From the NCBI GenBank assembly GCA_016700135.1, contig CP065004.1, positions 1,230,001 to 1,262,000 of the forward strand: 32,000 bases of DNA, read 5' to 3'. Source of the stretch: Candidatus Saccharimonadota bacterium. GTDB lineage: Bacteria > Patescibacteriota > Microgenomatia > UBA1406 > GWC2-37-13. The position numbers and the translations under genes were made by a program. The notes under the pieces are model-generated. The model was not told where the DNA came from. It ran no database searches and saw only the letters and a program-made list of their open reading frames with translations. Below are positions 1-31,637 of this stretch, piece after piece (within the stretch, counting starts at the first letter, position 1; every line of letters begins with the position of its first letter).

Positions 1-146
1 CCGCCAGCTGGCGGATCGGACATCCACTTCGCTCACAAATTTTGATTACTTCGCTTTAATAAAAGCGAAGATACCGATTTTTTTTGCGACTTGGGAGGTG
101 CGCAGCTTATATATTCCGGCGAGCACGCCCACAGAGCATAAAAAAA
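1..146 (+). repeat. Composite intergenic hairpin element, copy A (left edge cut by window start)
   Basis: nt 1-50 match 2110-2159 at 48/50. nt 86-106 are identical to 2204-2224 and nt 113-145 to 2231-2263; only the 6-nt loop differs (ttatat vs tgacac). A private perfect 9-bp hairpin lies at 49-57/62-70. Module 2 is flanked by a T8 run (78-85) and an A7 run (140-146). Confidence 0.8.
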
Positions 147-173
147 TCGTATCGAGCAATAAAATCATCCCCC

Positions 174-2085: not shown

Positions 2086-2263
2086 AAAATTTGTTCGGAA
2101 GTGAACTCTCCGCCAGCTGGCGGATCTGACATCCACTTCACTCACAAATTTTGATTACTAGGCTTAACAAATAGCTTTTCTGTGTGCTCGATGCAATTTT
2201 TTTGCGACTTGGGAGGTGCGCAGCTGACACATTCCGGCGAGCACGCCCACAGAGCATAAAAAA
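2086..2263 (+). repeat. Composite intergenic hairpin element, copy B (complete)
   Basis: Module 1 is a ~67-nt imperfect palindrome (2086-2152) centred on ccgccag|ctggcgg (2110-2123), with aaaatttgt...acaaatttt ends. Module 2 (2197-2263) is T7-gcgacttgggaggtgcgcagc-loop-attccggcgagcacgcccacagagcat-A6. Same orientation as copy A. Confidence 0.85.
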
Positions 2264-2304
2264 TTACAGCGAGATTAAACAGTTAGTACATTATTATTCA
2301 AAGT

Positions 2305-2979
2305 ATGAAATACCTTATCGCAAACTGGAAAGCACAAACGACCCTTTTTGAAATAGACAAATGGATTGAAACATTTAAAGATCAGCTTGCAGGCGACATA
2401 AAACTTACGGAAAAACTGGCAGACAACACGGTCAAAATCATTATCTGTCCCCCGTTCCCCTTCATACTCTATGTCAAAAATCATTTTGAGAATATTTCCG
2501 GAATAGAAGTCGGCGCTCAGGATGTTTCTGCTTTCAAGGAAGGCAAATACACGGGTGAAGTTACTGCAAAAGCGCTTAAAGATATTACAAACTACAGCAT
2601 TGTCGCACACAGTGAACGCCGTGAACATTTTCAGGAAACCGAACAGGAAATCGAACATAAAGTCTCCATGTGTGATCAGTACAACATCTCCCCCATTCTT
2701 TGCATCAGGAATGCGACTGACACCGTGTATTCGTCGGTAAAAATTGTTGCATTCGAGCCCGTAGAAGCAATCGGCACCGGTGAAAATGCCGATGTCGAGT
2801 ATGTCCTTGAAATGAAGAAAAAAGTACAGTTACCTGAGGGCGCAGCATATCTTTATGGCGGCAGTGCCGATTCGAAGAATATCAATGACTACCTCAAGAC
2901 AGGAGAAATTGACGGATTTCTCGTAGGGACTGCATCGCTTGACCCGCAAGAATTCTACGCCATGGCGCGGGAAATGTGA
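2305..2979 (+). CDS. tpiA: Triosephosphate isomerase (short 224-aa form)
   Basis: Motifs ANWK, AHSERR, AFEPVEAIGTG and YGGS appear in canonical order. ATG start. Confidence 0.9.
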   Translation: MKYLIANWKAQTTLFEIDKWIETFKDQLAGDIKLTEKLADNTVKIIICPPFPFILYVKNHFENISGIEVGAQDVSAFKEGKYTGEVTAKALKDITNYSIVAHSERREHFQETEQEIEHKVSMCDQYNISPILCIRNATDTVYSSVKIVAFEPVEAIGTGENADVEYVLEMKKKVQLPEGAAYLYGGSADSKNINDYLKTGEIDGFLVGTASLDPQEFYAMAREM

Positions 2980-3228
2980 GTCTTCTTGATTGCACTCTCC
3001 TTCACACAATATTCATTTTAGACCGTTGTAATAATGCAATATGTACTTGTTATGATATAACACATATCCTATAAGAATAGTACAATTCCTCAATACATGG
3101 AGAAGTATTCCTTATAGTTACTACAAATTAGTTATTGTTCTGGATAAGTAAAGCATCTTACCTGAACGACTATTTGTATAAGCACTTTGACAACCGGATG
3201 CAAACAATACAGTGATTAAGAGAATAAA

Positions 3229-3279
3229 TCCTGACGGAGTATGAGGTTTGGAATATCCAGACTTGATAATCCGTCAGGA
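3229..3279 (+). promoter_or_regulatory. Extended stem-loop in the leader of the repeat-protein gene
   Basis: A 10-bp outer stem tcctgacgga/tccgtcagga (3229-3238 / 3270-3279) encloses an inner stem gtttgga/tccagac. It lies 60 nt upstream of the ATG at 3340, with no U-tract after it. Confidence 0.35.
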
Positions 3280-3339
3280 GGACGGAAGAAAAGAACAACT
3301 TCAGATTGAACACTCTCTACATGAAAGGACAGGTGTAAG

Positions 3340-6300
3340 ATGCGTTTCGTTCGAAGGATTCGTCAGGTTGTAACAATTGTCTGTATCGTTGTATATCTGC
3401 TGGCAAACGGGATTCCTCACGCTGATCCATCAAAGGTTGCACAAGCAGCCGGAACATTCACTATCAGTGGTATGGTCACCGTCAATGGACAAACAGTTTG
3501 GGACGGTTTTGGCGTGAAAATAACCGGAAGCCGTGGCACGACTATGTGGGCAGAGACTCGTGGAGGATGGTATCAGTTCACGGGGTTTTCCTCAGGAACA
3601 TATACCATCGGACACAACAGTAGTTGTACCCCTAATGCTCAGCTAATCTCCATTACAGGCAGCACTCGCTATGACATTCACTTGACATGCCAGACGTACA
3701 CTCTGGGCGGTTATGTGGCTATCAACGGCAAACCAGCCTGGAAAGGATTCGGAGTAAAGGCAACATTGGGTGATTGGAGTACCAAGTGGGGAGAAGTTGT
3801 GACGGATGACGGCTGGTATGAGTTTAAAGGCAGCAATGCTCTTATTGCCGGCAACTATGTCATACATCATAACCACAATTGCCCCTCGACAACCCCTGTC
3901 CCTATCTCGATTCCCGCGACCAACAACCGAGGACCTGATATAAACCTTGACTGCCCGACATACACTCTCAATGGGTATGTCAAGATAAACGGAGTCCCGG
4001 CATGGAAGGGTTTTGGAGTAAAGGCAACATTCGGAGACGGAACAACATTGTGGGCAAAAGTTGAGACTGATGATGGCTGGTATGAATTTCGTGATGCCAG
4101 TCGACTGATCCAAGGGAATTATGTGATCAGTCATAATCATAGCTGTCCTTCCAATGCCCCAATCCCTATCGGTATTCCTGCCACAAACAATCGCGGTCCT
4201 GATCTCTACCTGGATTGCCCGACTTTTCCGCTCCATGGCAAAGTCTATGTTAATGGAGAGCCTGCATGGAAAGGATTTGGTGTCAAGGTAACGATTAACG
4301 GCTGGATGACTAAATGGATTCAAACACAGGGTGATGATGGATATTACGAGTTTTCCGGAGGTAATGCGCTTCTCGAAGCCGACTATGTAATACATCACAA
4401 TCATCCGTGTGAATCAAACACCCCCGCCGGTATTCATGTCCCAGCAGCAAACAATCAAGGTCCGAATATTTACATTACCTGTCCTGATACAAAACATCCG
4501 CTCTATGGATACGTAACTGTAAATGGAAGACCTGCATGGAAAGGTTTCGGAGTAGCTGCAGCTCGCAAGAACGGCAGTACGAAGTGGGTTCTGACGGATA
4601 CAAGCGGCAGATATGAATTCAGTGGAGATGATATCCTCACTGAAGGCGAATACACAATTCGTCACAATCATAACTGCCCATCAAACAACGATGTCACGGT
4701 ATGGATTCCCAGCAATGGAAACCGGGGACCCGATTTTGACATCAGATGTCCTGCATACACTCTCTACGGCTATATCACAATTGACGGCACGCCCGCCTGG
4801 AAGGATTTTGGTGTAAAAGCCTCTCTCAAAGACGGTACGACTGTCTGGGCATTGACTGATGAGAACGGACGCTATGAGTTCAAAGGAGATGTCAGTCTGA
4901 TCGAAGCCGATTACACCATCCATCACAATCACCCGTGTCCATCTGATTCACCGACCAATGTTCACGTCCCATCAACAGGCAACCGAGGACCGGATATCCA
5001 TCTGACGTGCGGAAGTTTCAACCTGACCGGAAGAGTAACTGTTGATGGCAGCCCTGCTTGGAAGACTTTTGGAGTCAAGGCTGTGGGTAGCAATGGTAAA
5101 TCGTACTGGGCACTTGTTCATGACAATGACGGTCACTTTGCTTTTTCGAATCTGCCACGGGATACCTACTATGTGGGGCATGTTCACAACTGCGCTACTG
5201 AAGAGGGAAATCCCGTCACGATCGATCTGACAACTGACCGCTCAGCAGATTTCAACATCAAGTGTCAACCATCACCGGTACCTACACCTACACCGATCCC
5301 TATTGATCCTCCGGGAGGCTGCGTGGGATTAGAGACACGCGAGCGGCCAATGCAGCAATATAGCATCAAGCAAGATTTCGTTGCCTACTATATTGTTTCC
5401 AAAGCTACTTCTACTCTCAAATCAAACGCTTGTCCCGGTGCGATCTTTACGATTGGAGACATCACGACCGGTAAGCTTCTGTCGTTCGGATCCCATGGAA
5501 GCTACATTGATGTCTACAACGACGGTCGCATCAAAACCAACATAGAGAGCATCACCGCCAATCCTAAGTTTGAGTGCGGATTGGTCTGGGAAGTGATCAC
5601 GAACAAAAAGTATGCCTATTCATGTGAGACGTCCTACGGGGCATCGGCCAATTTGCCCAACCTCAACGGCAATATCACGCTGAACACGAAGATTGAGCAT
5701 GAAGTACATGTCCGAGGTGATCAACTTGCTTTGTCACTCGCATGGTCCATCTCAGAGATGACGAGGAAAGTTGAATCAATTAACATACAACTAACCGATC
5801 CCAATACGGTAGTAGGAATTTTTGGGTTAGGTATGATTGGTATGATACTCTACAACATGTCTCTCAAGTTCTTTGTATTTCCAATATTTTGGGGTGAGCC
5901 CAGTCCTGAACCGGCAGCAGTAGCGAGTAGCCTGAGTGATGAGCTTCCTGAAGAAATCCTCAGCGATCTCAAGGCAGCAATAGGTGAAGGTGCTGCTACT
6001 AAGGGTGTATGGTCAGAAATGGAAGTTTCCAGAGAAGGACCATCAACGCTGAAGCTTCAAGCTGACGGATTCAGCCCCACGGGTGGTGTCTATGTCCTTG
6101 TGACGGAAGATGAGTTGAGTTTCCCGAACGAAGCACCACTTCACGAAGGGAGCTATTCCGCTGATACTGATGGCCATGTCTATCTACAGATTCCATTGTC
6201 TGCATTGTCAGAGAAGCCTCTCGTAGTAATAGCCGTTGATCTTGAAGACTTCCGGTCACAGTACGCTCGGTATCTGAAAGGAGACATCGACGAGATTCAT

Positions 6301-6375
6301 TATCGAGGAACAGCAGCAGTTTTGCATTCGGACAATGTCACAAGCAGCCTTTACCTGCCTCTAGTCGAGCGGTAA
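3340..6375 (+). CDS. Large envelope protein: signal/anchor, 7 tandem ~85-88-aa domains, Pro/Thr linker, Cys-containing domain, one TM helix, acidic C-terminal tail
   Basis: 1011-codon ORF with an ATG start and an SD-like aaaggacaggtg upstream. The N-terminus is Arg-rich then hydrophobic, ending AQAAG. A TM segment VVGIFGLGMIGMILYNMSLKFFVFPIFW is encoded at nt 5809-5892. No enzyme motif recognised. Confidence 0.85.
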   Translation: MRFVRRIRQVVTIVCIVVYLLANGIPHADPSKVAQAAGTFTISGMVTVNGQTVWDGFGVKITGSRGTTMWAETRGGWYQFTGFSSGTYTIGHNSSCTPNAQLISITGSTRYDIHLTCQTYTLGGYVAINGKPAWKGFGVKATLGDWSTKWGEVVTDDGWYEFKGSNALIAGNYVIHHNHNCPSTTPVPISIPATNNRGPDINLDCPTYTLNGYVKINGVPAWKGFGVKATFGDGTTLWAKVETDDGWYEFRDASRLIQGNYVISHNHSCPSNAPIPIGIPATNNRGPDLYLDCPTFPLHGKVYVNGEPAWKGFGVKVTINGWMTKWIQTQGDDGYYEFSGGNALLEADYVIHHNHPCESNTPAGIHVPAANNQGPNIYITCPDTKHPLYGYVTVNGRPAWKGFGVAAARKNGSTKWVLTDTSGRYEFSGDDILTEGEYTIRHNHNCPSNNDVTVWIPSNGNRGPDFDIRCPAYTLYGYITIDGTPAWKDFGVKASLKDGTTVWALTDENGRYEFKGDVSLIEADYTIHHNHPCPSDSPTNVHVPSTGNRGPDIHLTCGSFNLTGRVTVDGSPAWKTFGVKAVGSNGKSYWALVHDNDGHFAFSNLPRDTYYVGHVHNCATEEGNPVTIDLTTDRSADFNIKCQPSPVPTPTPIPIDPPGGCVGLETRERPMQQYSIKQDFVAYYIVSKATSTLKSNACPGAIFTIGDITTGKLLSFGSHGSYIDVYNDGRIKTNIESITANPKFECGLVWEVITNKKYAYSCETSYGASANLPNLNGNITLNTKIEHEVHVRGDQLALSLAWSISEMTRKVESINIQLTDPNTVVGIFGLGMIGMILYNMSLKFFVFPIFWGEPSPEPAAVASSLSDELPEEILSDLKAAIGEGAATKGVWSEMEVSREGPSTLKLQADGFSPTGGVYVLVTEDELSFPNEAPLHEGSYSADTDGHVYLQIPLSALSEKPLVVIAVDLEDFRSQYARYLKGDIDEIHYRGTAAVLHSDNVTSSLYLPLVER
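3454..5268 (+). repeat. In-frame tandem coding repeat, seven units of about 255-276 nt
   Basis: Unit starts are at nt 3454, 3694, 3958, 4222, 4498, 4753 and 5014. Shared protein pattern: GYVxxNGxPAWKGFGVK...DDGWYEF...YxIxHNHxCPS...NxGPD...CP. Adjacent units R2 and R3 differ at many synonymous sites. Confidence 0.9.
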
Positions 6376-6382
6376 ATGGCAA

Positions 6383-6415
6383 TGTGGAGCACCTGGTAAC
6401 ACCAGGTGCTCCACA
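6383..6415 (+). terminator. Perfect 15-bp hairpin directly after the repeat-protein stop codon
   Basis: tgtggagcacctggt-aac-accaggtgctccaca starts 8 nt after the TAA at 6373-6375. No U-tract follows, so intrinsic termination is uncertain. Confidence 0.45.
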
Positions 6416-6445
6416 ATAGATTCTATTCCAATAATTGATACATAT

Positions 6446-6454
6446 TGATATAAT
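6446..6454 (+). promoter_or_regulatory. Extended -10 element TGATATAAT
   Basis: Matches the TGnTATAAT consensus exactly. It ends 7 nt before the ATG at 6462, which predicts a leaderless or near-leaderless transcript. Confidence 0.4.
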
Positions 6455-6461
6455 AAGCACT

Positions 6462-7187
6462 ATGAGTAACAACCAAAAAAAGCAAATAACTATATTTGAT
6501 TTTATATTTGAAATAATGCGGGGAACTTACCTTGCATTTCTTTTTTGCACGGGATTCGCAGGTTTGTTAATGGTTCTAGCATACAAATATACTTATGTTC
6601 CTTCTAATGTATTTTTGTATCTCATTGCTCATCCTTTTTTTGGATTAATAACTCTTGCAGTTTTAGTAATTCTTTTTTTTAGATACTTGCCTAGAGCTTT
6701 TTTTATAGCTAACAGGCTTCAATTCTCACAATCTAAGACGGCACGTGTTTATAATCATAATAAAAATGTATTAAAATCTAGCTTTTTTCAAAACAGCAAT
6801 ATAATTGTTAGCTTTTTAACGTTTAATATTATTTTAATTCTGTCGCTTCTTCAAACGATCGATGGTTTATTTTGGGGAAGACGATTAACCTCACTTAATG
6901 ATTTATTTAATGGTAAATATACTTCCTTCACCGATCCGGGTATGTGGATATGGTCATTGGTTTACTTTATTCAAATCTTGATCATATTCTTCTACCTAAA
7001 ATACAAATACGAATCCCCGAAACAGAAACCTCTCATTGATAAAACGATGGAGATATACAACAGTCCGGAAGCGGCACAATATCGGGAATCTAAATACGGA
7101 AGATATATCACCGTTTTTCTCCTCTCAGGATTCTGGATATTTCTCCACCAAATCGCACTTGTACTTATTCGTATTTTTAATCAATAA
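6462..7187 (+). CDS. Polytopic membrane protein, unknown family
   Basis: About five hydrophobic helices (e.g. YLAFLFCTGFAGLLMVLAY, MWIWSLVYFIQILIIFFYL). Sampled lines are ~30% GC. The track start at 6435 is TTG; the first ATG is at 6462. Confidence 0.6.
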   Translation: MSNNQKKQITIFDFIFEIMRGTYLAFLFCTGFAGLLMVLAYKYTYVPSNVFLYLIAHPFFGLITLAVLVILFFRYLPRAFFIANRLQFSQSKTARVYNHNKNVLKSSFFQNSNIIVSFLTFNIILILSLLQTIDGLFWGRRLTSLNDLFNGKYTSFTDPGMWIWSLVYFIQILIIFFYLKYKYESPKQKPLIDKTMEIYNSPEAAQYRESKYGRYITVFLLSGFWIFLHQIALVLIRIFNQ

Positions 7188-8066
7188 ATGAAAAACAAAG
7201 GAATCGTATTTATTATCGCTGCAATATGTATTGCACTTTTATATTTTGGTGCTACAAATCTCTCCCTTTTGCAAAATTCTTTACAAAAAGTGGGATTAGC
7301 AGAAGAACTGCATAAAGACTGGAACAGTCTCTATAGTAAACCATGTGGCATATATATAAAATACCCTGAAGACTGGGAAGCAATCTTACAGGAGAAGAAT
7401 GATCCGTTCTTAATGTGCCAAATTACTTTAGATGCACCGGGTAAAGGAGGAAGTATATTTATTAGTGGTAACGATAAAAACCATAACGATCAATACAATG
7501 ATGAAAAAAGGTATCCGACAGTTCGAAAAATCGGGAGATATAGCGGGCGGTACAATGAAACTTCCATTGATTGGTACTATGCTGAATCATATTATTTAGC
7601 TATTAATGATATAGCTTATGCAATCTCGTTCGAAACATCCAATAAAAACGATAAAGAAATTTTCTACGAGATTTTTGATACACTAACACTTCAAGAGTCC
7701 AATATTGATAAGTCATATGCAGATAATCCATACATTCCCAAAGAAGAAGACAGACCTTTATATTTTGACGGCCAGGAAATGAGCAAAGAGACATATTTAC
7801 TTATAAAAAATAATGAATCAAAACTGGATCAGTACGTAACGTCTACTGACACACAAAAGACTTTTAATGTAGAAGCTGCCAAAGCTGCAGGTTTTGATCC
7901 TATTGTTATCGAATATAAAACGGCATTTATCGAGTATCAAAACGCCTTTACCCAACAAATTCTTTCCCCTCCATCCACTGATCTTAAATTCATGAAAGTG
8001 ATGGATAAATATCCCATACTTAAACAATATATACTAGCTGAAAATAAATATAAAACTGTGAATTAA
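7188..8066 (+). CDS. Membrane-anchored or secreted protein, unknown family
   Basis: The ATG follows the upstream TAA with a 0-nt gap. An N-terminal hydrophobic segment GIVFIIAAICIALLYFGA precedes ~260 hydrophilic residues rich in Lys, Asn and Tyr. Confidence 0.6.
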   Translation: MKNKGIVFIIAAICIALLYFGATNLSLLQNSLQKVGLAEELHKDWNSLYSKPCGIYIKYPEDWEAILQEKNDPFLMCQITLDAPGKGGSIFISGNDKNHNDQYNDEKRYPTVRKIGRYSGRYNETSIDWYYAESYYLAINDIAYAISFETSNKNDKEIFYEIFDTLTLQESNIDKSYADNPYIPKEEDRPLYFDGQEMSKETYLLIKNNESKLDQYVTSTDTQKTFNVEAAKAAGFDPIVIEYKTAFIEYQNAFTQQILSPPSTDLKFMKVMDKYPILKQYILAENKYKTVN

Positions 8067-8081
8067 TTGGAAAATAAAATA

Positions 8082-13250: not shown

Positions 13251-14570
13251 TTACAGTTTCTTGATATTGCCTCCCAAGCCGGAGATCTTTTCTACAAAAT
13301 CCTCATATCCCCTTTCAAGGTGATGGATTCCTTTGATATACGATTCTCCCTGTGCCATAAGAGCTGCAATTGCGAGTGTCGCACCGGCCCGAAGATCCGA
13401 GACTGTCATCACACCGCCGTGCAGTTTTTGCGGTCCCGTGATCTGAATTGTCTGCTGATACTCTTTTTCCGGGTCGTAGTTGAAGTGATAATGCGAACGA
13501 GGATCGTCAATTTCATAATCAATATATTCGATATGAGCTCCCAGTCTTCTCAGTTCTTCAACATAACTGAATCTGTTTTCAAAAATCCGTTCATGAATGA
13601 CTGATTTCCCTTGAGCCTGCGTCATCAGGATTGCCATGAGAGGCTGCCAGTCAGTGAGAAAACCCGGATGCGGTTCCGTCTCGACGGACATGGCATGAAC
13701 AGGTTTGTAATAAAATTTCCAGGTTCCGTCAGCGACCTTCTCCGCTCCTGCTCCCGCTTTTTGGATCGTATCAATGAATGTTTGGATGTAATGGTCTTCA
13801 ATTGAGGAAATCGTTACTTCTCCTTTGGTCACGATTCCGGCGACTGCATAGGTGATTGCCTCAACTCGGTCGGATGCAATAGTATACGGTTTTCCCTGAA
13901 CTAAGCGTTCCACACCTTCAATTTCGATATCAGCTGCTTTTCTCGCAATCTTCGCACCGCCTTCATTGAGAAGATGTATCAAATCATCAATCTCAGGTTC
14001 CTGTGCCGCATTTTTAATTGTTATTACCCCTTTACAGAACACGGACATCAGGATCATAAGCTCCGTACCTGTATGTGACGGCTTCGGGAAGGTATACTCT
14101 CCGTGAGGTTTTTCCGGCATGGCGGAATCATAATACCCGGTCGAAGAATCATACGAGACTGAGATACCCAGAGCTTTCAGCCCTTCAATCACCCGGTCGA
14201 TCGAACGGGCACCGAGACGGCAGCCTCCTGGATTGGGAATCTGTGCTTTTTGAAAACGATAGAGAAGCGGTGCAAAAAGCAAAAAGGAGACTCGGATTTT
14301 GGAAGCATGCAAAAGGTCAACTCTATTCTCGGTAATCTTTGAAGGATCTATCGTCACGGTATTGCCTTCAAAGGTCACATCCGCCCCGAGAAGCTTCAAC
14401 AGATGGATAAGCTCCTGAATATCATCAATTCGGGGAATATTGTGCAAAACGACTTTCCCCTCAAAAAGAAGCGCCGCAATAAGCACTTTCAATGCAATAT
14501 TTTTTGCTCCCGATAACTGTACTGTTCCCTGTAACGGTTGTCCTCCTTTGATGATATACGCATCTTCCAT
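13251..14570 (-). CDS. murA: UDP-N-acetylglucosamine 1-carboxyvinyltransferase
   Basis: MEDAYIIKGGQPLQGTVQLSGAKN N-terminus and catalytic-loop Cys in NPGGCRLGARSID. The track start at 14582 is TTG; an ATG at 14570 is used here. Confidence 0.9.
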   Translation of the reverse strand: MEDAYIIKGGQPLQGTVQLSGAKNIALKVLIAALLFEGKVVLHNIPRIDDIQELIHLLKLLGADVTFEGNTVTIDPSKITENRVDLLHASKIRVSFLLFAPLLYRFQKAQIPNPGGCRLGARSIDRVIEGLKALGISVSYDSSTGYYDSAMPEKPHGEYTFPKPSHTGTELMILMSVFCKGVITIKNAAQEPEIDDLIHLLNEGGAKIARKAADIEIEGVERLVQGKPYTIASDRVEAITYAVAGIVTKGEVTISSIEDHYIQTFIDTIQKAGAGAEKVADGTWKFYYKPVHAMSVETEPHPGFLTDWQPLMAILMTQAQGKSVIHERIFENRFSYVEELRRLGAHIEYIDYEIDDPRSHYHFNYDPEKEYQQTIQITGPQKLHGGVMTVSDLRAGATLAIAALMAQGESYIKGIHHLERGYEDFVEKISGLGGNIKKL

Positions 14571-14593
14571 AATAGTGTTCAATATATTAATTT

Positions 14594-14658
14594 GTCATCT
14601 CGACCGAAGTGGAGAGATCTCTTCCTGGAAGGGATTCCTCGACGTTGCTCGGAATGAC
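14594..14658. repeat. 65-nt imperfect palindrome between murB and murA (hairpin family member E)
   Basis: Arms gtcatctcgaccgaagtggagagatctcttcc / ggaagggattcctcgacgttgctcggaatgac. It shares the aatttgt lead-in and the gaagtgga core with modules in copies A, B and D. Confidence 0.6.
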
Positions 14659-14666
14659 TGAATATG

Positions 14667-15599
14667 TTAAATAATCTGTACTTCCTCCTTCAATTCGACA
14701 CCGAACTTTTCTTTTACCGTTTCTTTGATAAGCTGAAGAATTGAATTCAAATCTTCCGGTGTCCCGTCTCCTGTATTGATGACAAAATTTGCATGTTTGT
14801 CCGATACCACAAAGCCGCCGATACGTTTTCCTTTCAGACCGGCATGATCAATCAGATACCCTGCAGAGGTCGTCTGCAGATTATGTGATTCTTTCTCCTC
14901 CTGAGAAATATTCTGGAAAAAACAACCGCCCGTCGCAACACCGAACGGCTGGGTTTCCTTCCGGTATGCAAGCGCTTCCTGAGCTCTCATTTTCAAAACC
15001 GAAGAATCTTCTTTTCTTAATCTGAAAACACCTTCCAGAAAAATCTCCTTTGTATCCTGCAGCTTGCTGTAGTCATATGCAAATGAAAAATACTCTTTTT
15101 GTTCAGTACGGACATTTCCCTGCTTATTCATGATCGTCCCGGTGAGGAGCGTATCCCCGACATATGTCACCGGTTTTGTCCATTTAGAATTCATATATAT
15201 AGCTCCTCCTAATGTCCCGGGTAATCCTAAGTGATATTCAAACCCTGACCATCCGGATTCGGTTGTTTCTTTCACAACCAGACTCATGGGATAGCCTGAT
15301 GAAAAAAGGACATCGATATATTCATCAGTCTCGGAAATGACTTCCTTTCGCATATATCTGTTCCTCACAACCAGTCCCGGGATAACGTTCTTCAAAACGG
15401 CAATATTTGACCCGCCTCCGAGAATAAAAAGTGGAATATCATTCTCTAAAGTTACACGAGCGATTTCCCGCCATTCATCAATTGATGACGCCTCGATATA
15501 AAACTCAGCCCTAGTCTTCATTTTAAGGGTAAAGTACGGCGACAAATCAAAATCTTTTTTCAACCTGTCTCCGAATTGTTTTGTGAGTAGTTCTTCCAT
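14667..15599 (-). CDS. murB: UDP-N-acetylenolpyruvoylglucosamine reductase
   Basis: FAD-binding ILGGGSNIAV motif, 310 aa, positioned between murC and murA. Confidence 0.85.
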   Translation of the reverse strand: MEELLTKQFGDRLKKDFDLSPYFTLKMKTRAEFYIEASSIDEWREIARVTLENDIPLFILGGGSNIAVLKNVIPGLVVRNRYMRKEVISETDEYIDVLFSSGYPMSLVVKETTESGWSGFEYHLGLPGTLGGAIYMNSKWTKPVTYVGDTLLTGTIMNKQGNVRTEQKEYFSFAYDYSKLQDTKEIFLEGVFRLRKEDSSVLKMRAQEALAYRKETQPFGVATGGCFFQNISQEEKESHNLQTTSAGYLIDHAGLKGKRIGGFVVSDKHANFVINTGDGTPEDLNSILQLIKETVKEKFGVELKEEVQII

Positions 15600-15646
15600 T
15601 ATCTGCTGGATTAAAATAATTAATTTCTGGTATGAGCGCAGTAATT

Positions 15647-15711
15647 AAAATTTGTGCAGAGGTGGATGTTCGAGCTGACAAATTCAGGCGAGTTCACCTC
15701 TAACAAATTTT
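15647..15711. repeat. 65-nt imperfect palindrome between murC and murB (hairpin family member D)
   Basis: aaaatttgtgcagaggtggatgttcgagc-tgacaaattca-ggcgagttcacctctaacaaatttt. The ends and the trailing (c)gattac match module 1 of copies A and B. The loop-proximal attcaggcgag resembles attccggcgag of module 2. Confidence 0.65.
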
Positions 15712-15741
15712 CGATTACAAGCGAATAATTTTGAAAAACGA

Positions 15742-17205
15742 TTACATGCGGTCAATAATCTTCTTAATCTCGACATCCAATTTATATACATCCCCCGCTC
15801 CCATCGTAAAAATAATATCACCTTGGGACATATGTCCCGATAAGTATTCCGTAAGATCTTCCTTTGAACCGAAAGCCTTAATAGTCGTAATACCTTTCTT
15901 CATTGCCAAATCAACCAAATCCTCTGATGTAATGTGCTGACCTTCTGCGTTTTCGCGGGCAGAGGAAAAAATCGGCAGCAATAATGCTTCATCAGCACGG
16001 CTTAAAACTTCCGCAAAAGCATCTGCAAACTGTTTCGTCCGCGTAAAGGTGTGCGGCTGAAAAATAACGATCATCCGCCGGTTCGGAAAACGGTTCTGAC
16101 AAGCCGTAATTGTCGCATCAATTTCGGCAGGGTGATGAGCATAATCATCAAACACATAGATGTCATTTTTAAAAAACTTTTCTTCAAAACGGCGTTTCGG
16201 ACCCTGATAATCCCTGATAACGGCTTTAATATCCTGTATCGGAAAGCCCAGATGAAGAAGAATCGCAATCACACCGGTGGTATTTGATACGTTTTTCTCT
16301 CCGAAAAGCGAAATAGATATTTCCGTATGTTTGATGTCGTATTGTTCGCTGTTCAGGACAAATATCGTTTCTTTTTCATCATTTGTGATATCAGAGTATG
16401 TCACGTCACACATTTCACTCGCTCCGTAAAAAATGTATGCACTCGGAGGCAGGTGAAAAGAAATATCTCTCAGACCTTCATCATCTCCGTTTAGAAACAA
16501 AACCGGAGGAATCGTATCTTTTTGAATGATTTTCTGCATGAACGCAGAAAATGCATCCTTTACTTCAGTAAATGATTTATAAATATCCGGGTGGTCGAAA
16601 TCAAGATTGGTCACAAGTGCGTAATCGGGATTCACCTTGTGGAATTTCGGTGTGATATCTTCAGGAGGATCAATTCCGTATTCATCAGCTTCAAACACAA
16701 AATAGTCTTTCCCTTTGAATTCTCCTCCGTAGGTAACGCCGAAAGATGAGACTCCGATCATATGACTCGAACTATGACTAAGTTTAGACAGTGCATATGC
16801 GAGCATTCCGGAAGTTGTCGTTTTACCGTGACATCCTGCAACGGCTATCGATTTCCGAAACTCTTTTATAAGCATCCCCAATAAATCTGCCTGATGCAGA
16901 ACAGTGATCCCGCGCTTGACTCCTTCCGCGACTTGAGGATTATTTTTTCCTCCGTGAGAGGCGGAATAAATGACATACTGCGTGTCGGCCGGCAACTGAG
17001 AAGCTTCAAATGAGGTTGTAACAGAAACTTCAGCTTGTTTGAGAGAAACGTCCGTAATAAACTCTTCGGCAACATCAGATCCTGAGACTGTCTTACCCAT
17101 CTGTTTCAGAATGCGGGCTAAGTTTGCCATCGCTACGCCTTTTATACCTACGAAGAAAATATGGTCGATTGTAGATAGCATAGGTATATTATAAGCGAAA
17201 AACAT
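15742..17205 (-). CDS. murC: UDP-N-acetylmuramate--L-alanine ligase
   Basis: N-terminal FFVGIKGVAMANLA dinucleotide-fold motif and the Mur ligase P-loop AVAGCHGKTTT. An alternative ATG lies at 17181. Confidence 0.85.
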   Translation of the reverse strand: MFFAYNIPMLSTIDHIFFVGIKGVAMANLARILKQMGKTVSGSDVAEEFITDVSLKQAEVSVTTSFEASQLPADTQYVIYSASHGGKNNPQVAEGVKRGITVLHQADLLGMLIKEFRKSIAVAGCHGKTTTSGMLAYALSKLSHSSSHMIGVSSFGVTYGGEFKGKDYFVFEADEYGIDPPEDITPKFHKVNPDYALVTNLDFDHPDIYKSFTEVKDAFSAFMQKIIQKDTIPPVLFLNGDDEGLRDISFHLPPSAYIFYGASEMCDVTYSDITNDEKETIFVLNSEQYDIKHTEISISLFGEKNVSNTTGVIAILLHLGFPIQDIKAVIRDYQGPKRRFEEKFFKNDIYVFDDYAHHPAEIDATITACQNRFPNRRMIVIFQPHTFTRTKQFADAFAEVLSRADEALLLPIFSSARENAEGQHITSEDLVDLAMKKGITTIKAFGSKEDLTEYLSGHMSQGDIIFTMGAGDVYKLDVEIKKIIDRM

Positions 17206-17216
17206 AAATAAACCAT

Positions 17217-17250
17217 GAAAAAGGGCTGCGTTCCCGAAAGAACGCAGCCC
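17217..17250 (-). terminator. Rho-independent terminator downstream of kup
   Basis: Perfect 11-bp GC-rich stem gggctgcgttc/gaacgcagccc (17223-17233 / 17240-17250) with a 6-nt loop, followed on the minus strand by TTTTT. A second 7-bp hairpin tcctcac/gtgagga lies at 17257-17276. Confidence 0.75.
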
Positions 17251-17293
17251 GCTTGATCCTCACGCCATTGTGAGGACGATGACTAGACATATT

Positions 17294-19144
17294 CTATTGT
17301 CCCATGCCTATCTGTAGGGCATGTTGACCGTTGCCGTTCAGACTGATCACAGGTTGGGTCTCGACAACCCAGGGGACCCGCGTGATTACGACGCCCTTGA
17401 GCGTCTGCAGCCGTTCCATCAGCGCTGCACCGTTCGGGTGAAGAAGCGGTGTATCTCCGTGGACAACTGACTGTCCGAGAAAAATCCACACCATTCCTTC
17501 GCTGTTCTCCTGGATTGACCTGACATACTCAACTGCAGGATGCAGAAGGTCTCCGCTTGGTGAGTCGATGATCTCGACAGACTCGCCGATCTCGGCCAGG
17601 TAGTGCTCAAGTAACTCTACCCGTTCAGGACGAGTTGCAATATGGACAAGCTTGTACGGAGCATTGAGAGCTTTTGCAGCTCCGATCAAAAGCTTTGTAC
17701 CACAGTGCGCATACTCGTCTATGAAGACGATGACCGACGATACATCCGTGTTGAACGTCTGAGTGACGGTAAACGGAACCTTCTTCGCGCGAAGTAACTC
17801 TCTGTTGTGGAAGTAGTACCATTCCATTCCGGCGGTGCCGAGAAAGGCAATGGTGAGCGGAATCCAGCCGCCGTGTGCAAACTTGACCAGATTCGCTCCG
17901 AAGAACGTCAGATCAATCAACACAAAGACGACAAGAAACACGCGTGCATGCCACAACTGCCAACCTTTGACCTGCACCAAAGTGTGGTACCACAGCCATG
18001 TAGTGATGGCCATGGTGCCGGTGACGGCGATGCCATAAGCGGCAGCAAGTCCGGAACTGGACTGGAAAAAAAGAACCAAAGCAATGCACCCCATCAGCAG
18101 AATCTTGTTGACGGTAGGCACATAAATCTGCCCGTGGTTCTTTACTGAGGTGCTCACGATCTCGATCGCGGGAAGCGCATGAAGATCAATGAGCTGACGG
18201 GTGAGTGAATACGCACCCGTGATCAAAGCCTGGGAGGCAATGATCGTGGCCAGTGTTGCGAGGAGGACAAGAGGCAGCTGGAACCAAGAAGGTGCCAGGC
18301 TGTAAAAAGGGTGCTCTGCCATCTCCGGGTTGGTGATGACAAGTGCGGCCTGCCTAAAGTAGTTCAAAACAAGCGAAGGAAGCGCGAAGCTTAGCCATCC
18401 GAGACGCACAGGTAGTGCTCCGAAGTGGCCCATGTCGGCATATAGTGCTTCACCGCCGGTAACTACAAGGACGACTGCCCCAAGGGTCAGAAATCCGATG
18501 ACCCCGTTGTGAACAAAGAACTGTACGGCATACACCGGATTTACCGCTGCAAGTACTTGCGGATACAGGAGAATTCCGAAAAATCCCAGAATTCCCATTG
18601 TCAGGAACCAGCAGATCATGACCGGACCGAAGGTATTCCCAACAAGCTGCGTCCCATACCGCTGGACACTGAACAACCCAACAAGGATCAGAACCGTGAT
18701 CGGTATGACTAAGCGGTCAGCAGCAGGCGCAACTACTTTCAGACCTTCAACCGCTGAGAGCACGCTTATTGCCGGAGTTATCATGCCGTCTCCGTACAGG
18801 AGAGCGACACCGAAAACTCCGAGAACAATGTGTATGGGATGGACCTGTTTTTTCACGAGACCGATAAGGGCGGTGATACCTCCCTCACCGTGATGGTCAG
18901 TGTTTAGCAGGAAAATCACATACTTGATTGTTACAACTACGATCAGGCTCCAGAACATGAGACTTACAATCCCCATCACATTCTCCCGCGTGGGAGCGAT
19001 GTAATGGAACGCCTCCTTAAGGGCGTACAGGGGGCTCGTACCGATATCCCCATACACCACACCGAGTGCTGCCAGTGTCAACAATAAAGTTGAACTGATA
19101 GTAGGGGCGGCGTCACGGGACTTCGTTACGTGTGAGTACGGCAT
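17294..19144 (-). CDS. kup: KUP/HAK/KT-family potassium uptake protein
   Basis: 616 aa. GDIGTSPLY signature near the N-terminus, about 12 hydrophobic segments, then a soluble C-terminal domain. Strong SD gagaggag lies 4 nt upstream of the ATG. Confidence 0.9.
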   Translation of the reverse strand: MPYSHVTKSRDAAPTISSTLLLTLAALGVVYGDIGTSPLYALKEAFHYIAPTRENVMGIVSLMFWSLIVVVTIKYVIFLLNTDHHGEGGITALIGLVKKQVHPIHIVLGVFGVALLYGDGMITPAISVLSAVEGLKVVAPAADRLVIPITVLILVGLFSVQRYGTQLVGNTFGPVMICWFLTMGILGFFGILLYPQVLAAVNPVYAVQFFVHNGVIGFLTLGAVVLVVTGGEALYADMGHFGALPVRLGWLSFALPSLVLNYFRQAALVITNPEMAEHPFYSLAPSWFQLPLVLLATLATIIASQALITGAYSLTRQLIDLHALPAIEIVSTSVKNHGQIYVPTVNKILLMGCIALVLFFQSSSGLAAAYGIAVTGTMAITTWLWYHTLVQVKGWQLWHARVFLVVFVLIDLTFFGANLVKFAHGGWIPLTIAFLGTAGMEWYYFHNRELLRAKKVPFTVTQTFNTDVSSVIVFIDEYAHCGTKLLIGAAKALNAPYKLVHIATRPERVELLEHYLAEIGESVEIIDSPSGDLLHPAVEYVRSIQENSEGMVWIFLGQSVVHGDTPLLHPNGAALMERLQTLKGVVITRVPWVVETQPVISLNGNGQHALQIGMGQ

Positions 19145-19667
19145 CCGACTCCTCTCTTTCTAGGAACGAGAACAAAATCACGAATTGATACACTCCAATG
19201 TAAGCTTTAGATGAGAATTATGTAAGAACAAATTACCGAATAAAAAGGAGAGTCTCATCTATATAGGTTTTTGCATTAAAGCACAGGGAGAAAAACAGAA
19301 ATTGTTCAATTCCTCTCTCTATGTTTTATCAGTTCTGAAAAACACTAAAACCCACATCGGAGTTTACCAAATAGTATCTAGTCATTTCGGCTGTGGATAA
19401 CAGTCCGAGTGTAAAAGTGCCAAACCCGATTATCCGTTTCGGGAACTTTACAACAGGACTTAGCCTTTAAATCCCTGTAAAGAATGCACTGACTTACTTC
19501 AGAAAATGCTTATATTTCTGATAGTTGTGCCAACATCATTTAATCACTATATATTATACTATAAGATAGAATATTATCCTATCAATTGAGTTGAGAATAA
19601 AATTCTACCAGATAGCGTTTTGAAAAGCGAAAAAACTTAACAATATAAATGAAATGTACGCAGACAG

Positions 19668-20381
19668 CTACTGAAGTTCTATGAAGGAGACCATTTCACC
19701 TATAATGCCCTGATCACGCTTATTGGAAAAAAACTCGGTGTCATCGCAGGAAGTGCATAAATCAGATACGTCAATATTGTTACGGCTTAGACCGGCATTC
19801 AGTAATGTCAGGACGTTTGCTTTTTTCAAGTCAAGATACACGGCGCTCTTCTGCTTTTTGAACACTGTGTCACCGAATAATGACTGAAACAAACGTAGCC
19901 GTTCACCGTATATATCGTAGCAACAGGAATCTATAGCAGGACCGATTACTGCCACTATATCTTTCTGTTTTGACCCCATTTTGATCATATCGTCAATAAC
20001 TCTTTGACCGATTTTTTCCAACGTCCCTTTCCACCCTCCGTGAGATATACCAATGATGTTACCAACAGGATCAAAATACACAATCGGTACACAGTCCGCA
20101 GTAACAACTGTTAGAACAATGCCTTGTTGATTCGTTACCACGGCATCAATATTTTCTGGTTTGTAAATCACTTCACTAACAGGGCTTGTAATAACAGAGA
20201 CATTGTTCGAGTGAGTTTGGGACGGGATAACTATAGACGAATAATCAGTATCTTCGTTGTTTAACAACGTTTGAATAACATCGATGTCCCGACCGTCCCC
20301 TGTTTTCTTTGTTCCAAAACCATGCGGAGTTTGTAATAGTGAAGATTTATATACGGAAATGCTTTGGTCAAGAAGAAACAT
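19668..20381 (-). CDS. pgeF: YfiH/PgeF (DUF152, laccase-domain) family protein
   Basis: 237 aa with PSQTHSNNV, ADCVPI and SHGGWKG motifs in the order typical of YfiH/PgeF. Confidence 0.8.
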   Translation of the reverse strand: MFLLDQSISVYKSSLLQTPHGFGTKKTGDGRDIDVIQTLLNNEDTDYSSIVIPSQTHSNNVSVITSPVSEVIYKPENIDAVVTNQQGIVLTVVTADCVPIVYFDPVGNIIGISHGGWKGTLEKIGQRVIDDMIKMGSKQKDIVAVIGPAIDSCCYDIYGERLRLFQSLFGDTVFKKQKSAVYLDLKKANVLTLLNAGLSRNNIDVSDLCTSCDDTEFFSNKRDQGIIGEMVSFIELQ

Positions 20382-20407
20382 AGTTCTTAAATAAGCGAAA
20401 ATAGAAA

Positions 20408-20475
20408 TTTTTTTGCGACTTGGGAGGTGCGCAGTCTAATGCTTTCGGACGAGCACGCCCACTGAGCATAGTAAA
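20408..20475 (+). repeat. Module-2-only hairpin element, copy C, between murE and pgeF
   Basis: T7-gcgacttgggaggtgcgcag is identical to copies A and B over 20 nt. The second arm cggacgagcacgcccactgagcata carries two changes and the loop sequence differs. Confidence 0.8.
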
Positions 20476-20504
20476 TTTCTATTGAGCGGATAACAGCTAG
20501 ATTT

Positions 20505-21731
20505 TTATATTTTTTTTACAAGATCCAGCACTGCCTCTTTATCATGCCAGGGATACTCGACTGTACCTCGACAAAGACTTCTCTCATGTCCTTTTCCCGT
20601 CAAAACAATGACATCTCCAGACCTGGCAATATCCAACGCTCTTTTTATCGCATCTTTCCTGTTCACGATAGAAGTATATGTCTTAACCTGTTTGCCGAAT
20701 TCCTCCGATTTGACTACGGTGAATCCTTCCTTTTTAAGTCCGACAGCAATTTCGCGTGCAATTTTTTCAGGGTCCTCAGTACGATAATCTTCTTCAGTAA
20801 TAATCGTCAAATCTGCATATTTCCCGCTTTCCTGCCCCATCAAGGGCCTTTTTGCGTCATCTCTGAAAGCCGCAGCTCCGAAAATATGAATAAGTCTCCC
20901 TTTCTTCACACATTCAGCCCGGACACTGGGCAACGCCTCATGAAGTGCATTGGGAGTATGGGCAAAATCGACAATGACTTTGAAATCTCCGTCATACACG
21001 ACTTCCATACGGCCTTCGGGAAGGACATATGATTTCATGGCATTGAAAATAACATCTTCAGCAAGTCCGATACTCGAACAGACGGCATAAGCCGCCAAAA
21101 AGTTGTAGAGATTGAAATGAGCAAGCGGCTTTCCGATTTTCTCCGATATATCAAACTGATAATCGGATTTCTCCAGGAGTCCGTATGTTTTTGTTTTCGA
21201 CTGATCGACAATTCCTGCAAGGATCTCATACGACCTGTCGTCACGGTTGATAAAAGCATGTTTCGCCCACTTCAAGAGTTTTGCTTTCGCATGCACATAA
21301 TTTTCATAGGTTTTGTGATACTGGAGATGTTCATGTGTCACATTCGTGATCACGCCGTAGGTAAAATCAACACCGTAAACACGGTACTGATCAAGCGCGT
21401 GTGATGTCGTTTCTAATACAAAGTATTCATCTCCTTCTTTCACGGCATCATGAAGAAATTTCTGGACGGTAAACGGTGACGGGGTGGTGGTATGAAAACC
21501 GGTATCATATGATTTTCCTCCGATCACGGCAGAGACCGTCGTAATTACCGAAACTTTCTTCCCGGCGGATTTCAAAATATGATATATCAAAGATGACGTG
21601 GTAGTTTTGCCGTCTGTGCCTGTCACACCGATTACGGTAAGCCTGTTGCTGGGAGCCCCGTAATAAGTATTCGCAAGAATTGCTTTGAGGAGATGAAATT
21701 GGTTTTTGAGTTTTTGAACGTAAAAATCCAT
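20505..21731 (-). CDS. murE: MurE-like Mur ligase, short form lacking most of the N-terminal UDP-binding domain
   Basis: P-loop GVTGTDGKTTT begins at about residue 35. DFAHTPNAL resembles the MurE DYAHTPDAL motif. Located directly downstream of ftsI as in canonical dcw clusters. 408 aa. Confidence 0.7.
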   Translation of the reverse strand: MDFYVQKLKNQFHLLKAILANTYYGAPSNRLTVIGVTGTDGKTTTSSLIYHILKSAGKKVSVITTVSAVIGGKSYDTGFHTTTPSPFTVQKFLHDAVKEGDEYFVLETTSHALDQYRVYGVDFTYGVITNVTHEHLQYHKTYENYVHAKAKLLKWAKHAFINRDDRSYEILAGIVDQSKTKTYGLLEKSDYQFDISEKIGKPLAHFNLYNFLAAYAVCSSIGLAEDVIFNAMKSYVLPEGRMEVVYDGDFKVIVDFAHTPNALHEALPSVRAECVKKGRLIHIFGAAAFRDDAKRPLMGQESGKYADLTIITEEDYRTEDPEKIAREIAVGLKKEGFTVVKSEEFGKQVKTYTSIVNRKDAIKRALDIARSGDVIVLTGKGHERSLCRGTVEYPWHDKEAVLDLVKKI

Positions 21732-31600: not shown

Positions 31601-31637
31601 AACAAAAAAGAGCTCCCGGGTTAGGCCGGGAGCTCTT
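31601..31637 (-). terminator. Rho-independent terminator downstream of the S1-domain gene
   Basis: Perfect 12-bp stem aagagctcccgg/ccgggagctctt (31608-31619 / 31626-31637) with a 6-nt loop. The minus strand continues with a T-run (ctcttttttgtt). Confidence 0.75.

Follow-up and report, generated by a model that had tools for sequence, protein, structure and literature searches.

Hairpins C and D, which lie in gaps between cell-wall genes of the window (the whole stretch of 32,000 nucleotides analyzed here, from a Roizmanbacteria-like Microgenomates genome), are probably, together with the elements A1, A2, B1 and B2, copies of a superfamily of non-coding palindromic repeats restricted to a Roizmanbacteria-like Microgenomates clade (Patescibacteria/CPR), and are best read as selfish, co-transcribed DNA of the REP/BIME, MITE or RPE kind. 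Hairpin E, from the same gene string, belongs to another type, and all three of C, D and E look like DNA of recent insertion and fast turnover, not like terminators. The elements of the window are as follows; the larger spans given for D and C include the outer stem and the flank motifs.

1-57, plus strand: A1, module 1, cut by the window start, convergent with A2
66-162, minus strand: A2, module 2, sense to uvrD, 23 nt past the uvrD stop codon
2072-2166, plus strand: B1, module 1, in the divergent uvrD-tpiA gap
2184-2278, minus strand: B2, module 2, convergent with B1
14594-14658, minus strand: E, a 65-nt imperfect hairpin (GTCATTCCGAGC...GGTCGAGATGAC) in the murB-murA gap, of a family distinct from modules 1 and 2
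15633-15725 (core hairpin 15647-15711), minus strand: D, module 1 in canonical gene-sense orientation, in the murC-murB gap
20394-20486 (core hairpin 20408-20475), minus strand: C, module 2, in the gap between the gene of a 408-aa Mur ligase (murE) and pgeF

Two modules with one architecture

The earlier note had recognized module 1 ends in D, and D is a true module-1 copy, scoring 99.5 bits (E 1e-17) against the module-1 covariance model R1. B1 scored 95.3 bits and A1, with its 5' end truncated, 35.8 bits; A1 is 96% identical to B1 over 50 nt, and D is inverted relative to B1. C had been called a near-identical module 2. It is indeed a module 2, with 87-90% identity over 63-65 nt to A2, B2 and their L001 copies (E 1e-11 to 1e-13), but "near-identical" was too strong, since its loop differs from that of A2 and B2, which are 96% identical to each other. 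As a composite, B1+B2 duplicates A1+A2, and the two align over about 190 nt. The A2 tail CTTCGCTTT pairs with the A1 tail to form a small hairpin at 50-69, and the apical palindrome CCGCCAGCTGGCGG is common to A1 and B1 of the window and absent from their L001 orthologues, a concerted change.

The scan with a covariance model that the earlier note had proposed recovered 14 full module-1 copies scoring 72-106 bits, seven of them on metagenome contigs whose flanks are unrelated; between L084 and L096 the element alone is shared, at 94.5% identity. Six module-1 or module-2 copies occur in the 32-kb window, plus copies at unrelated loci in other genomes and metagenomes, counts that cover small samples from a few genomes. 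Convergent pairs, in which module 2 and module 1 point at each other, were found at three sites: two in the window and one, in short form and in another gene context, in L068.

Both modules are built alike: 5'-GCTYG is followed by a long imperfect hairpin, A/T-rich at its base, and then by C-TTCGCT-3'. D is flanked by TTCGCTTG on the left and C-TGCGCT on the right and consists of an outer stem GTAAT/ATTAC with a bulged CG, an A/T-rich stem AAAATTTGT/ACAAATTTT and an inner stem AGAGGTG/CACCTCT. Read on the minus strand, C presents GCTCA, the outer stem ATAGAAATTT/AAATTTCTAT and then T-TTCGCT, which is the module 1 frame. The terminal inverted repeats GTAAYC(G)AAAATTTGT and ACAAATTTTRATTAC are near-invariant across the 14 copies, and the GCTYG...C-TKCGCT flanks are common to module 2 and the murC-murB hairpin of L002. 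A scan for flanks plus stem gave 19 matches, against 8 in reversed-sequence controls; C was among those recovered, and L049 and L068 contributed short relatives with a covarying outer stem (TAACC/GATTA, GGACC/GGTCC, ATACC/GGTAT). Among the curated covariance models of Rfam there was no match at gathering score and no relevant match at E<=1, and our literature searches returned no REP- or MITE-like family described for CPR/Patescibacteria.

E could not be placed in this superfamily: the R1 model did not match it at E<=1, BLAST against every other element gave no match, and we rejected it as a relative of modules 1 and 2. The strings "aatttgt" and "gaagtgga", by which it had been tied to the other elements, are short post-hoc matches only, and grouping the five or six elements into a single family was wrong as regards E. 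It belongs instead to a GTCAT...ATGAC hairpin type that is recurrent in Patescibacteria. Hairpins of the same type, orthologous to E but diverged from it, occur in L001 and L002; identity to L001 is 61-67% in E and 86-98% in the flanking genes, so that the E region forms a spike of divergence.

Folding, strand asymmetry and covariation

As RNA, C, D and E all folded better than dinucleotide shuffles (z -2.2 to -6.0), which confirms the imperfect hairpins that had been described in these three gaps. For D, z lay between -4.9 and -6.0 as RNA; with DNA parameters it was about -6 for D and about -3.3 for C. E reached -3.5 on the plus and -2.2 on the minus strand as RNA; with DNA parameters it was no better than shuffles. 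The proposed asymmetry, with G-U pairs on one strand only, is real: the plus strand folds more strongly than the minus strand in D (-32.2 versus -26.2 kcal/mol), C (-29.1 versus -23.5 kcal/mol) and E (-29.2 versus -21.9 kcal/mol). The weaker-folding strand is the sense RNA in all 14 module-1 copies, in three of three module-2 copies, and in E.

The covariation test that had also been proposed was positive for the inner stems. In the module-1 alignment 98% of the cells are paired, and seven inner-stem pairs show compensatory double changes, a number reached by 2 of 500 shuffles; the covariation score was 0.208, whereas shuffles gave 0.077 and slid controls did not exceed 0.083. The 16-nt outer stem is nearly invariant and conserved in sequence but does not covary, a pattern more usual where a protein recognizes DNA.

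Insertion and turnover at gene junctions

The murB-murA gap measures 2-6 nt, or the genes overlap, in most of the more distant relatives (L003-L020), and the murC-murB junction is also tight in those where murC precedes murB. Similarly, the tpiA-uvrD gap is 17 nt in L102, where B1 and B2 are absent, versus 313 nt in the window. Close relatives differ in what occupies these sites. At murB-murA, five relatives carry four different hairpin types, all with z of -3.4 to -6.6. The murE-pgeF gap of the window has module 2, that of L001 has module 1, and L002 combines the two there. D is 98-100% identical in L001 and absent from L099, which has a 45-nt gap with no hairpin; other hairpins take its position in L002 and L101, and L101 holds a decayed copy. 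Since the junctions are tight in distant relatives and carry different hairpins or none in close ones, we regard the elements as insertions with rapid turnover. E, as a separate hairpin type, would likewise have been inserted at a once-tight murB-murA junction and may be undergoing rapid replacement.

One family member lies within a gene. At 16722-16783 of L049 it is in frame within an intact 462-aa MurD, adding about 22 aa at a variable loop, and most of its TTCGCT-like motif falls within the inserted segment. The same loop carries other hairpins in L043, L059 and L029 and none in L065. The window itself contains no in-frame copy.

Multi-copy dispersal, insertion into tight junctions, variation in presence and type, and the convergent BIME-like pairs all support the REP/BIME- or MITE-like reading that the earlier note had offered among others. 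Another of its suggestions, a bidirectional terminator, is not supported. An intrinsic, possibly bidirectional, terminator of lineage-specific shape would fit the A and T runs at the two stem ends and the T-rich tail that directly follows the closing CGC in about half of the copies (A2, C, L049, L068 and L088), but D and the L001_mEpF and L002_mEpF copies have no T tail, and the anatomy of the elements is not that of a terminator. The same genome uses canonical terminators: at 17223-17250, in the murC-kup gap (17206-17293), a 12-bp G+C-rich stem is followed by TTTTT, and there are further perfect G+C-rich hairpins near 6385-6415 and near 31605-31635. None of C, D and E resembles these G+C-rich structures or the T-run terminator, and the terminator scan did not pick them up; moreover, the sites lie between essential genes that fuse or overlap in relatives, and one copy is inside the intact murD reading frame. 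We consider a terminator role very unlikely. The three hairpins do fill the murB-murA, murC-murB and murE-pgeF gaps, but these are not the only sizeable ones, as had been stated: the murC-kup gap and the kup-pgeF gap (19145-19667, a 523-nt structured leader) are sizeable as well.

Orientation and a possible role in the transcript

The copies are biased in orientation, 12 of 14 between co-directional genes being sense; counted as independent sites, this is about 10 of 12 (two-sided binomial estimate, p about 0.04). This bias is what speaks for an mRNA-stabilizing role, as suggested in the earlier note, or a processing role, and, together with the murB-murA hairpin that persists in 5/5 clade members, it could equally reflect a function of the hairpin in the transcript. 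The hairpins would then be functional intercistronic RNA elements, selected as "a hairpin here" whatever the sequence, a view compatible with a mobile origin; candidate roles are processing sites for RNase III, E or Y, protective hairpins at 3' ends, or leaky attenuators uncoupling neighbouring mur genes. The mostly sense orientation, the compensatory changes that keep the inner stems, the strength of the murB-murA hairpin in all five clade members despite different sequences and the stability of E with RNA parameters only speak for such a function, and for transcribed Correia and ERIC elements, effects involving RNase III and RNase E are documented (PMC10969869). On the other hand, more distant relatives have no spacer at these junctions, the murC-murB gap of L099 lacks a hairpin, the L101 copy is decayed and one copy is inside coding sequence. 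In addition, G-U pairs would be expected on the sense strand if a sense hairpin were selected, but it is the sense RNA that folds more weakly, and the conserved outer stem without covariation fits protein-DNA recognition better. Selection for an RNA function, with these candidate roles, is therefore possible but doubtful.

According to the preferred reading as mobile repeats, the elements would be DNA copied to new sites. Their frame is fixed: 5'-(A/T)NGCTYG comes first, then an outer stem of 5 nt whose 5' arm has a bulged (C)G, an A/T-rich stem, an interior that varies but is self-complementary in every case, and the end C-T(T/G)CGCT-3'. In a tightly packed genome they would land, and be retained, at the few sites that tolerate them, namely intercistronic spacers, gene ends and occasionally, in frame, a protein surface loop, where they would be gained, lost and exchanged fast, and the two unlike modules would move together as well, in a convergent BIME-like pair. 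Transcription of the elements would be passive, within the mur and uvrD transcripts. In the orientation that mostly survives, the hairpin carried by the mRNA is the weaker one, with A.C mismatches, a pattern suggestive of selection against the opposite orientation or of insertion into one particular strand.

Probable mobility and candidate mechanisms

The earlier note had proposed looking for a RAYT or IS200/IS605 TnpA-like gene, and none turned up. A transposase, RAYT or recombinase was absent from the window and from about 1.7 Mb of related loci; in particular, no RAYT (Y1 HUH transposase) was present in the window, in the gene tables of L099-L105 or by tblastn over 1.69 Mb, and no autonomous insertion sequence with the same ends was found in the sequences examined. 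For this reason we infer mobility and assign no mechanism to it. The elements have flanking direct repeats (TTCGCT-like) in nearly all copies, with matching variants on the left and right in 10 of 16, and the repeats are largely part of the element; as no clean empty/filled pair was available at single-nucleotide resolution, they do not demonstrate a target-site duplication.

The hairpins might instead be structure-specific recombination sites, attC-like or of the single-strand type used by IS200/IS605/RAYT, between whose fixed flanks a dedicated enzyme exchanges hairpin "cassettes". Indeed, D of the window and the L002 hairpin at the same junction both lie between CTTG and C-TGCGCTCA, a base is bulged on one arm, one strand consistently folds better and the orientation is nearly fixed. 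However, the window and related loci examined contain no integrase, RAYT or TnpA, the attC R-box consensus sequences are missing, E does not fold as DNA, and the flanks are so short that their coincidence could be shared ancestry; we consider this explanation very unlikely. A hitherto undescribed, CPR-specific mobilization system, strand-specific and structure-recognizing, in which a putative enzyme exchanges single-strand hairpin "cassettes" and could also diversify protein loops, is improbable too, if less so; what suggests it is that the asymmetric frame (GCTYG...bulged G...C-TTCGCT) stays constant, that orientation is nearly fixed and one strand folds better, and that unrelated hairpin interiors are swapped between identical short flanks, both at fixed junctions and in a loop of a protein.

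Comparison with known systems

The elements resemble the RAYT-associated REP/BIME sequences of enterobacteria and pseudomonads in being imperfect palindromes outside genes that have a conserved asymmetric "head" beside the stem, in their density of about one per 5-10 kb, in lying inside operons and at gene ends where they are co-transcribed, and in combining two unlike hairpins inverted with a short linker (BIME Y/Z, compared with the convergent modules 2 and 1). They differ in length (79-95 nt versus 20-40 nt, i.e. two to three times longer), in their conserved flanks (GCTYG/C-TKCGCT versus GTAG in REP), in the absence of a RAYT gene from the sequences searched, in having a variable interior with constant ends and in the one copy in frame in a gene. 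Bacterial long-hairpin MITEs (Correia/NEMIS, ERIC/IRU, RUP and SPRITE; PMC10969869) are likewise small and non-coding, with terminal inverted repeats (here the 16-nt GTAAYC(G)AAAATTTGT), dispersed, strain-variable and transcribed with neighbouring genes, and orientation-dependent effects are known for elements of the MITE type. As differences, a target-site duplication is not demonstrated for the present elements and a parent insertion sequence was not found in the sequences examined; they are also shorter than most MITEs, have strongly conserved non-palindromic flanks and reside in a CPR host.

Rickettsia palindromic elements (RPE) are also palindromic repeats of a reduced genome that are able to sit in frame in essential genes, at permissive loops such as that of MurD here, but our copies are mostly intergenic, about 60-95 nt long versus about 100-150 nt, and unrelated in sequence. 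Integron attC sites share with them a similar size, imperfect palindromes with extrahelical bases, one better-folding strand and a structure conserved more than the sequence; in contrast, our elements lack the R''/R' core (RYYYAAC/GTTRRRY) at their ends, there is no integrase in the window and no attI, and their neighbours are essential housekeeping mur genes, not a cassette array. Rho-independent terminators are intergenic stem-loops too, and some of our copies are followed by T-rich sequence, but the present elements have long stems with mismatches and an A/T-rich base, and no consistent T tract.

The genomes of CPR/Patescibacteria are small and tightly packed, and the Roizmanbacteria-like clade carries several families of palindromic repeats that invade essential operons (murC-murB-murA and the dcw cluster) and even a MurD loop, turning over faster than the surrounding genes. 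Such repeats may serve as markers by which strains of these uncultured organisms can be typed and assemblies checked, and they are a warning for gene callers, as spurious small ORFs and protein insertions may result from them. They could also offer a tractable system for studying the spread and tolerance of hairpin repeats in minimal genomes and, if they also process or stabilize transcripts, would give one of the few ways to approach gene regulation in CPR bacteria.

Genes of the window and its relatives

By its MurB and UvrD relatives, the window falls in Patescibacteria/Microgenomates, near Roizmanbacteria. Its MurB is 95% identical to that of the related locus L001, and MurB or UvrD identity to the window is 77-91% for L002 and L099-L105; an exact look-up of the window MurB returned no record. 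Record titles were unreliable: many TPA_asm MAGs labelled 'uncultured Gammaproteobacteria bacterium', including L001 and L002, are plainly Patescibacteria/Microgenomates, as judged by gene content and similarity to Roizmanbacteria records. L001 lacks a 5.1-kb segment of the window (2978-8081) and has 12 bp at that place. The segment encodes three hypothetical genes and a 1011-aa protein with seven repeats of ~88 aa (weak SdrD_B/CarboxypepD_reg matches), of which L099 has a 490-aa version.

Genes (Pfam scan) and hairpin elements of the window
1-57, element A1, module 1, cut by the window start
79-145, element A2, module 2
174-1991, minus, uvrD
2072-2166, element B1, module 1
2197-2263, element B2, module 2
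2305-2979, plus, tpiA
13251-14582, minus, murA
14594-14658, element E
14667-15599, minus, murB
15633-15725, element D, module 1
15742-17205, minus, murC
17294-19144, minus, kup
19668-20381, minus, pgeF
20394-20486, element C, module 2
20505-21731, minus, Mur ligase, 408 aa
beyond the Mur ligase, ftsI, rsmH and mraZ, continuing the cell-wall string

Hairpins in the gaps between the cell-wall genes

The positions proposed for C, D and E in the earlier note were confirmed in the window sequence. As RNA, both strands of all three fold better than dinucleotide shuffles (z -2.2 to -6.0). When DNA parameters are used, significance holds for D (z about -6) and C (z about -3.3), and E folds no better than shuffles (z about 0). 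The copies of the two palindromic repeat types, modules 1 and 2, that had been reported on either side of uvrD were recovered by a repeat finder and BLAST.

D is indeed a module-1 copy, in the orientation opposite to B1. C had been described as a near-identical module 2; it is a module-2 copy with arms 87-90% identical, and its loop is different. The proposed kinship of E with module 1 did not hold, as neither BLAST nor the module-1 covariance model (at E<=1) gave a match, and BLAST matched E to none of the other window elements. E belongs to a hairpin type bounded by GTCAT...ATGAC, which had 8 matches in 1.69 Mb of Patescibacteria loci versus 0 in reversed controls; a related short form, GGATTCCCGCC..GCGGGAATGAC, is present in murD of L043 and between murC and murB of L101. 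Composite hairpins of the same type (GTCAT...GGATCC...GGATTC...GAATGAC), in which two small hairpins are inverted, recur across Patescibacteria loci.

Composite hairpins of the GTCAT type
L012, 11371-11476
L024, 6439-6533
L027, 19587-19662
L047, 421-486
L067, 2992-3080
L072, 7842-7945

Common architecture and covariation

When all copies are turned to a common orientation, each has at the 5' side a left flank, (T)TCGCT-Y-G or AAGCT-Y-G, followed by an outer stem of 5 nt, in which a (C)G is bulged on the 5' side, and then AAAATTT.... After a variable imperfect hairpin in the centre come ...AAATTTT, the complementary outer stem, C and T(T/G)CGCT. On the minus strand, the frame of module 2 (C, A2 and B2) is that of module 1, and an otherwise unrelated hairpin between murC and murB of L002 has it too. 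The outer stem (16 nt) is invariant within module 1 and covaries in short relatives (TAACC/GATTA, GGACC/GGTCC, ATACC/GGTAT). In the inner stem the sequence varies among subfamilies and pairing is kept, with 98% of cells pairing. Compensatory double changes occur in seven pairs; 2 of 500 shuffles had as many. The covariation score was 0.208, with shuffles scoring 0.077 and slid controls no more than 0.083.

In A1/A2 and B1/B2 the two elements are convergent and base-pair through their CTTCGCTTT tails, and L068 has a short-form pair, module 2 facing module 1, in another gene context. With its two unlike modules inverted relative to each other, such a pair resembles a BIME. An apical palindrome, CCGCCAGCTGGCGG, is common to A1 and B1 and lacking in their L001 orthologues, which points to conversion between copies. 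The two pairs form direct module 1/module 2 composites of ~190 nt that bracket uvrD (1-162 and 2072-2278, 78-96% identical); if the composites recombined, uvrD could be deleted or relocated.

Copies of module 1 beyond the window

With the module-1 ends as the pattern, a metagenome scan gave 18 stretches, of which seven were true copies with the characteristic flanks, all in short intergenic gaps; the other 11 were discarded by inspection as chance A/T-rich matches. The element is all that is common to L084 and L096 (94.5% identity, surrounding DNA unrelated), and likewise to L097 when compared with L089 and L093. The alignment of 14 module-1 copies gave a covariance model, R1. Scanning 1.5 Mb of related loci with R1 recovered all 14 (72-106 bits) and also picked up a short relative in each of L049 and L068. 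Viral contigs contained no module-1 match. Rfam had no match at gathering score and nothing relevant at E<=1. In the CPR/Patescibacteria/Microgenomates literature we found no MITE-, REP- or palindromic-repeat family described, and searching the literature by sequence string returned only primers.

Insertion and turnover at gene junctions

In most of the more distant relatives, murB and murA are separated by 2-6 nt or overlap, and murC abuts murB where it precedes it. The murB-murA hairpins of the window and its close relatives all fold with z of -3.4 to -6.6. Around E, coding DNA of the window and L001 is 86-98% identical versus 61-67% for the E region; for D the identity is 98-100%. L101 retains a decayed module-1 copy after uvrD. 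Such comparisons are evidence that the window hairpins are insertions with rapid turnover.

Hairpins at orthologous gene junctions
murB-murA: window, E; L001 and L002, diverged E-type hairpin; L099, AACGT-rich hairpin; L101, GGAATT-rich hairpin
murC-murB: window and L001, D; L099, no hairpin, 45-nt gap; L002 and L101, other hairpins
Mur ligase-pgeF: window, module 2 (C); L001, module 1; L002, modules 1 and 2
tpiA-uvrD: window, B1+B2, 313-nt gap; L105, one module-1-like element; L099, 178 nt, no family member; L101, 57 nt; L102, 17 nt, empty

Repeats of the AACGT/ACGTTAC type constitute a further hairpin family.

Hairpins of the AACGT/ACGTTAC type
L099, 1530-1640, between murB and murA
L008, 1132-1200, after murB
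L102, 11800-11860, after uvrD

One of the short relatives, in L049 (16722-16783), lies inside an intact 462-aa MurD, adding ~22 residues at a variable loop. The same loop carries other hairpins in L043 (about 16700), L059 and L029, and none in L065; counting L049, four related genomes each have a different in-frame hairpin there, which makes this protein loop a hot spot of palindrome insertion. In-frame insertion into protein genes has been described for Rickettsia palindromic elements (PMC10969869), and the L049 copy behaves like these.

Orientation and strand asymmetry

Of the copies located between co-directional genes, 12 have the gene-sense and two the antisense orientation, or about 10 to 2 when orthologous sites are counted once (estimated two-sided binomial p about 0.04). 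The antisense strand has the more stable fold, by 1-14 kcal/mol, and more G.U pairs in 14 of 14 module-1 copies, three of three module-2 copies and E; therefore, the earlier claim of G-U pairing on one strand was correct, the G.U-rich strand being the complement of the mur mRNAs. Hairpins of other types (L099, L101) showed no such asymmetry. Mutational bias was considered as the cause and rejected by reasoning: if cytosines of the non-template or leading strand were deaminated, G.T pairs would be expected on the sense strand, contrary to the observed pattern. From GC skew, a leading-strand position of the mur genes is suggested and not established. Since the usual deamination biases predict the opposite, we read the asymmetry either as selection that disfavours the strongly folding orientation in transcripts or as strand-specific insertion.

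Terminators, promoters and the kup leader

The terminator reading was not upheld: a consensus scan finds the canonical terminator downstream of kup (17223-17250, GGGCTGCGTTC...GAACGCAGCCC followed by TTTTT), not C, D or E. Two perfect G+C-rich hairpins, at 6383-6415 (after the 1011-aa gene) and about 31605-31635 (beside ftsK), look like ordinary terminators, unlike the repeat elements; one has a 15-bp stem, GTGGAGCACCTGGTG..., and the other is GAGCTCCCGG...CCGGGAGCTC with A and T runs on either side. An element-borne promoter was dismissed, as promoter-like matches across the region were at chance level (27 found versus 22.7 expected) and that of E overlaps the murA start.

A 523-nt leader (19145-19667, minus) with a promoter-like site (19585-19558) precedes kup. 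It had no Rfam match, and blocks of its sequence are conserved in L001, L002, L003 and L004. In its core fold (19300-19470), 8 of 31 predicted pairs have compensatory changes, among only four sequences. The leader is a candidate for an unclassified cis-regulatory RNA of the K+ transporter. The kup unit looks like an insertion into the mur string, because L101 is without kup, its long leader and its terminator (window 17206-19667) and has pgeF directly adjoining murC. Kup identity to L001 is only 81% versus 95% for MurB.

Mobility and nature of the repeats

Neither the window nor the related loci examined encode a transposase, RAYT or recombinase. From dispersal and polymorphism, we infer that the repeats are mobile. 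A tblastn search with an IS608 TnpA query found nothing, which is a weak negative only. TTCGCT direct repeats were dropped as an unproven target-site duplication because the motif hardly differs from site to site and, in L049, lies mostly inside the inserted segment.

That the hairpins act in transcript processing or stability is a live alternative, compatible with an origin as selfish repeats. The best-supported account, bearing out the suggested REP/BIME/MITE-like resemblance, is that the repeats are a selfish, co-transcribed palindromic superfamily, new for this phylum and of the REP/BIME/MITE/RPE type.
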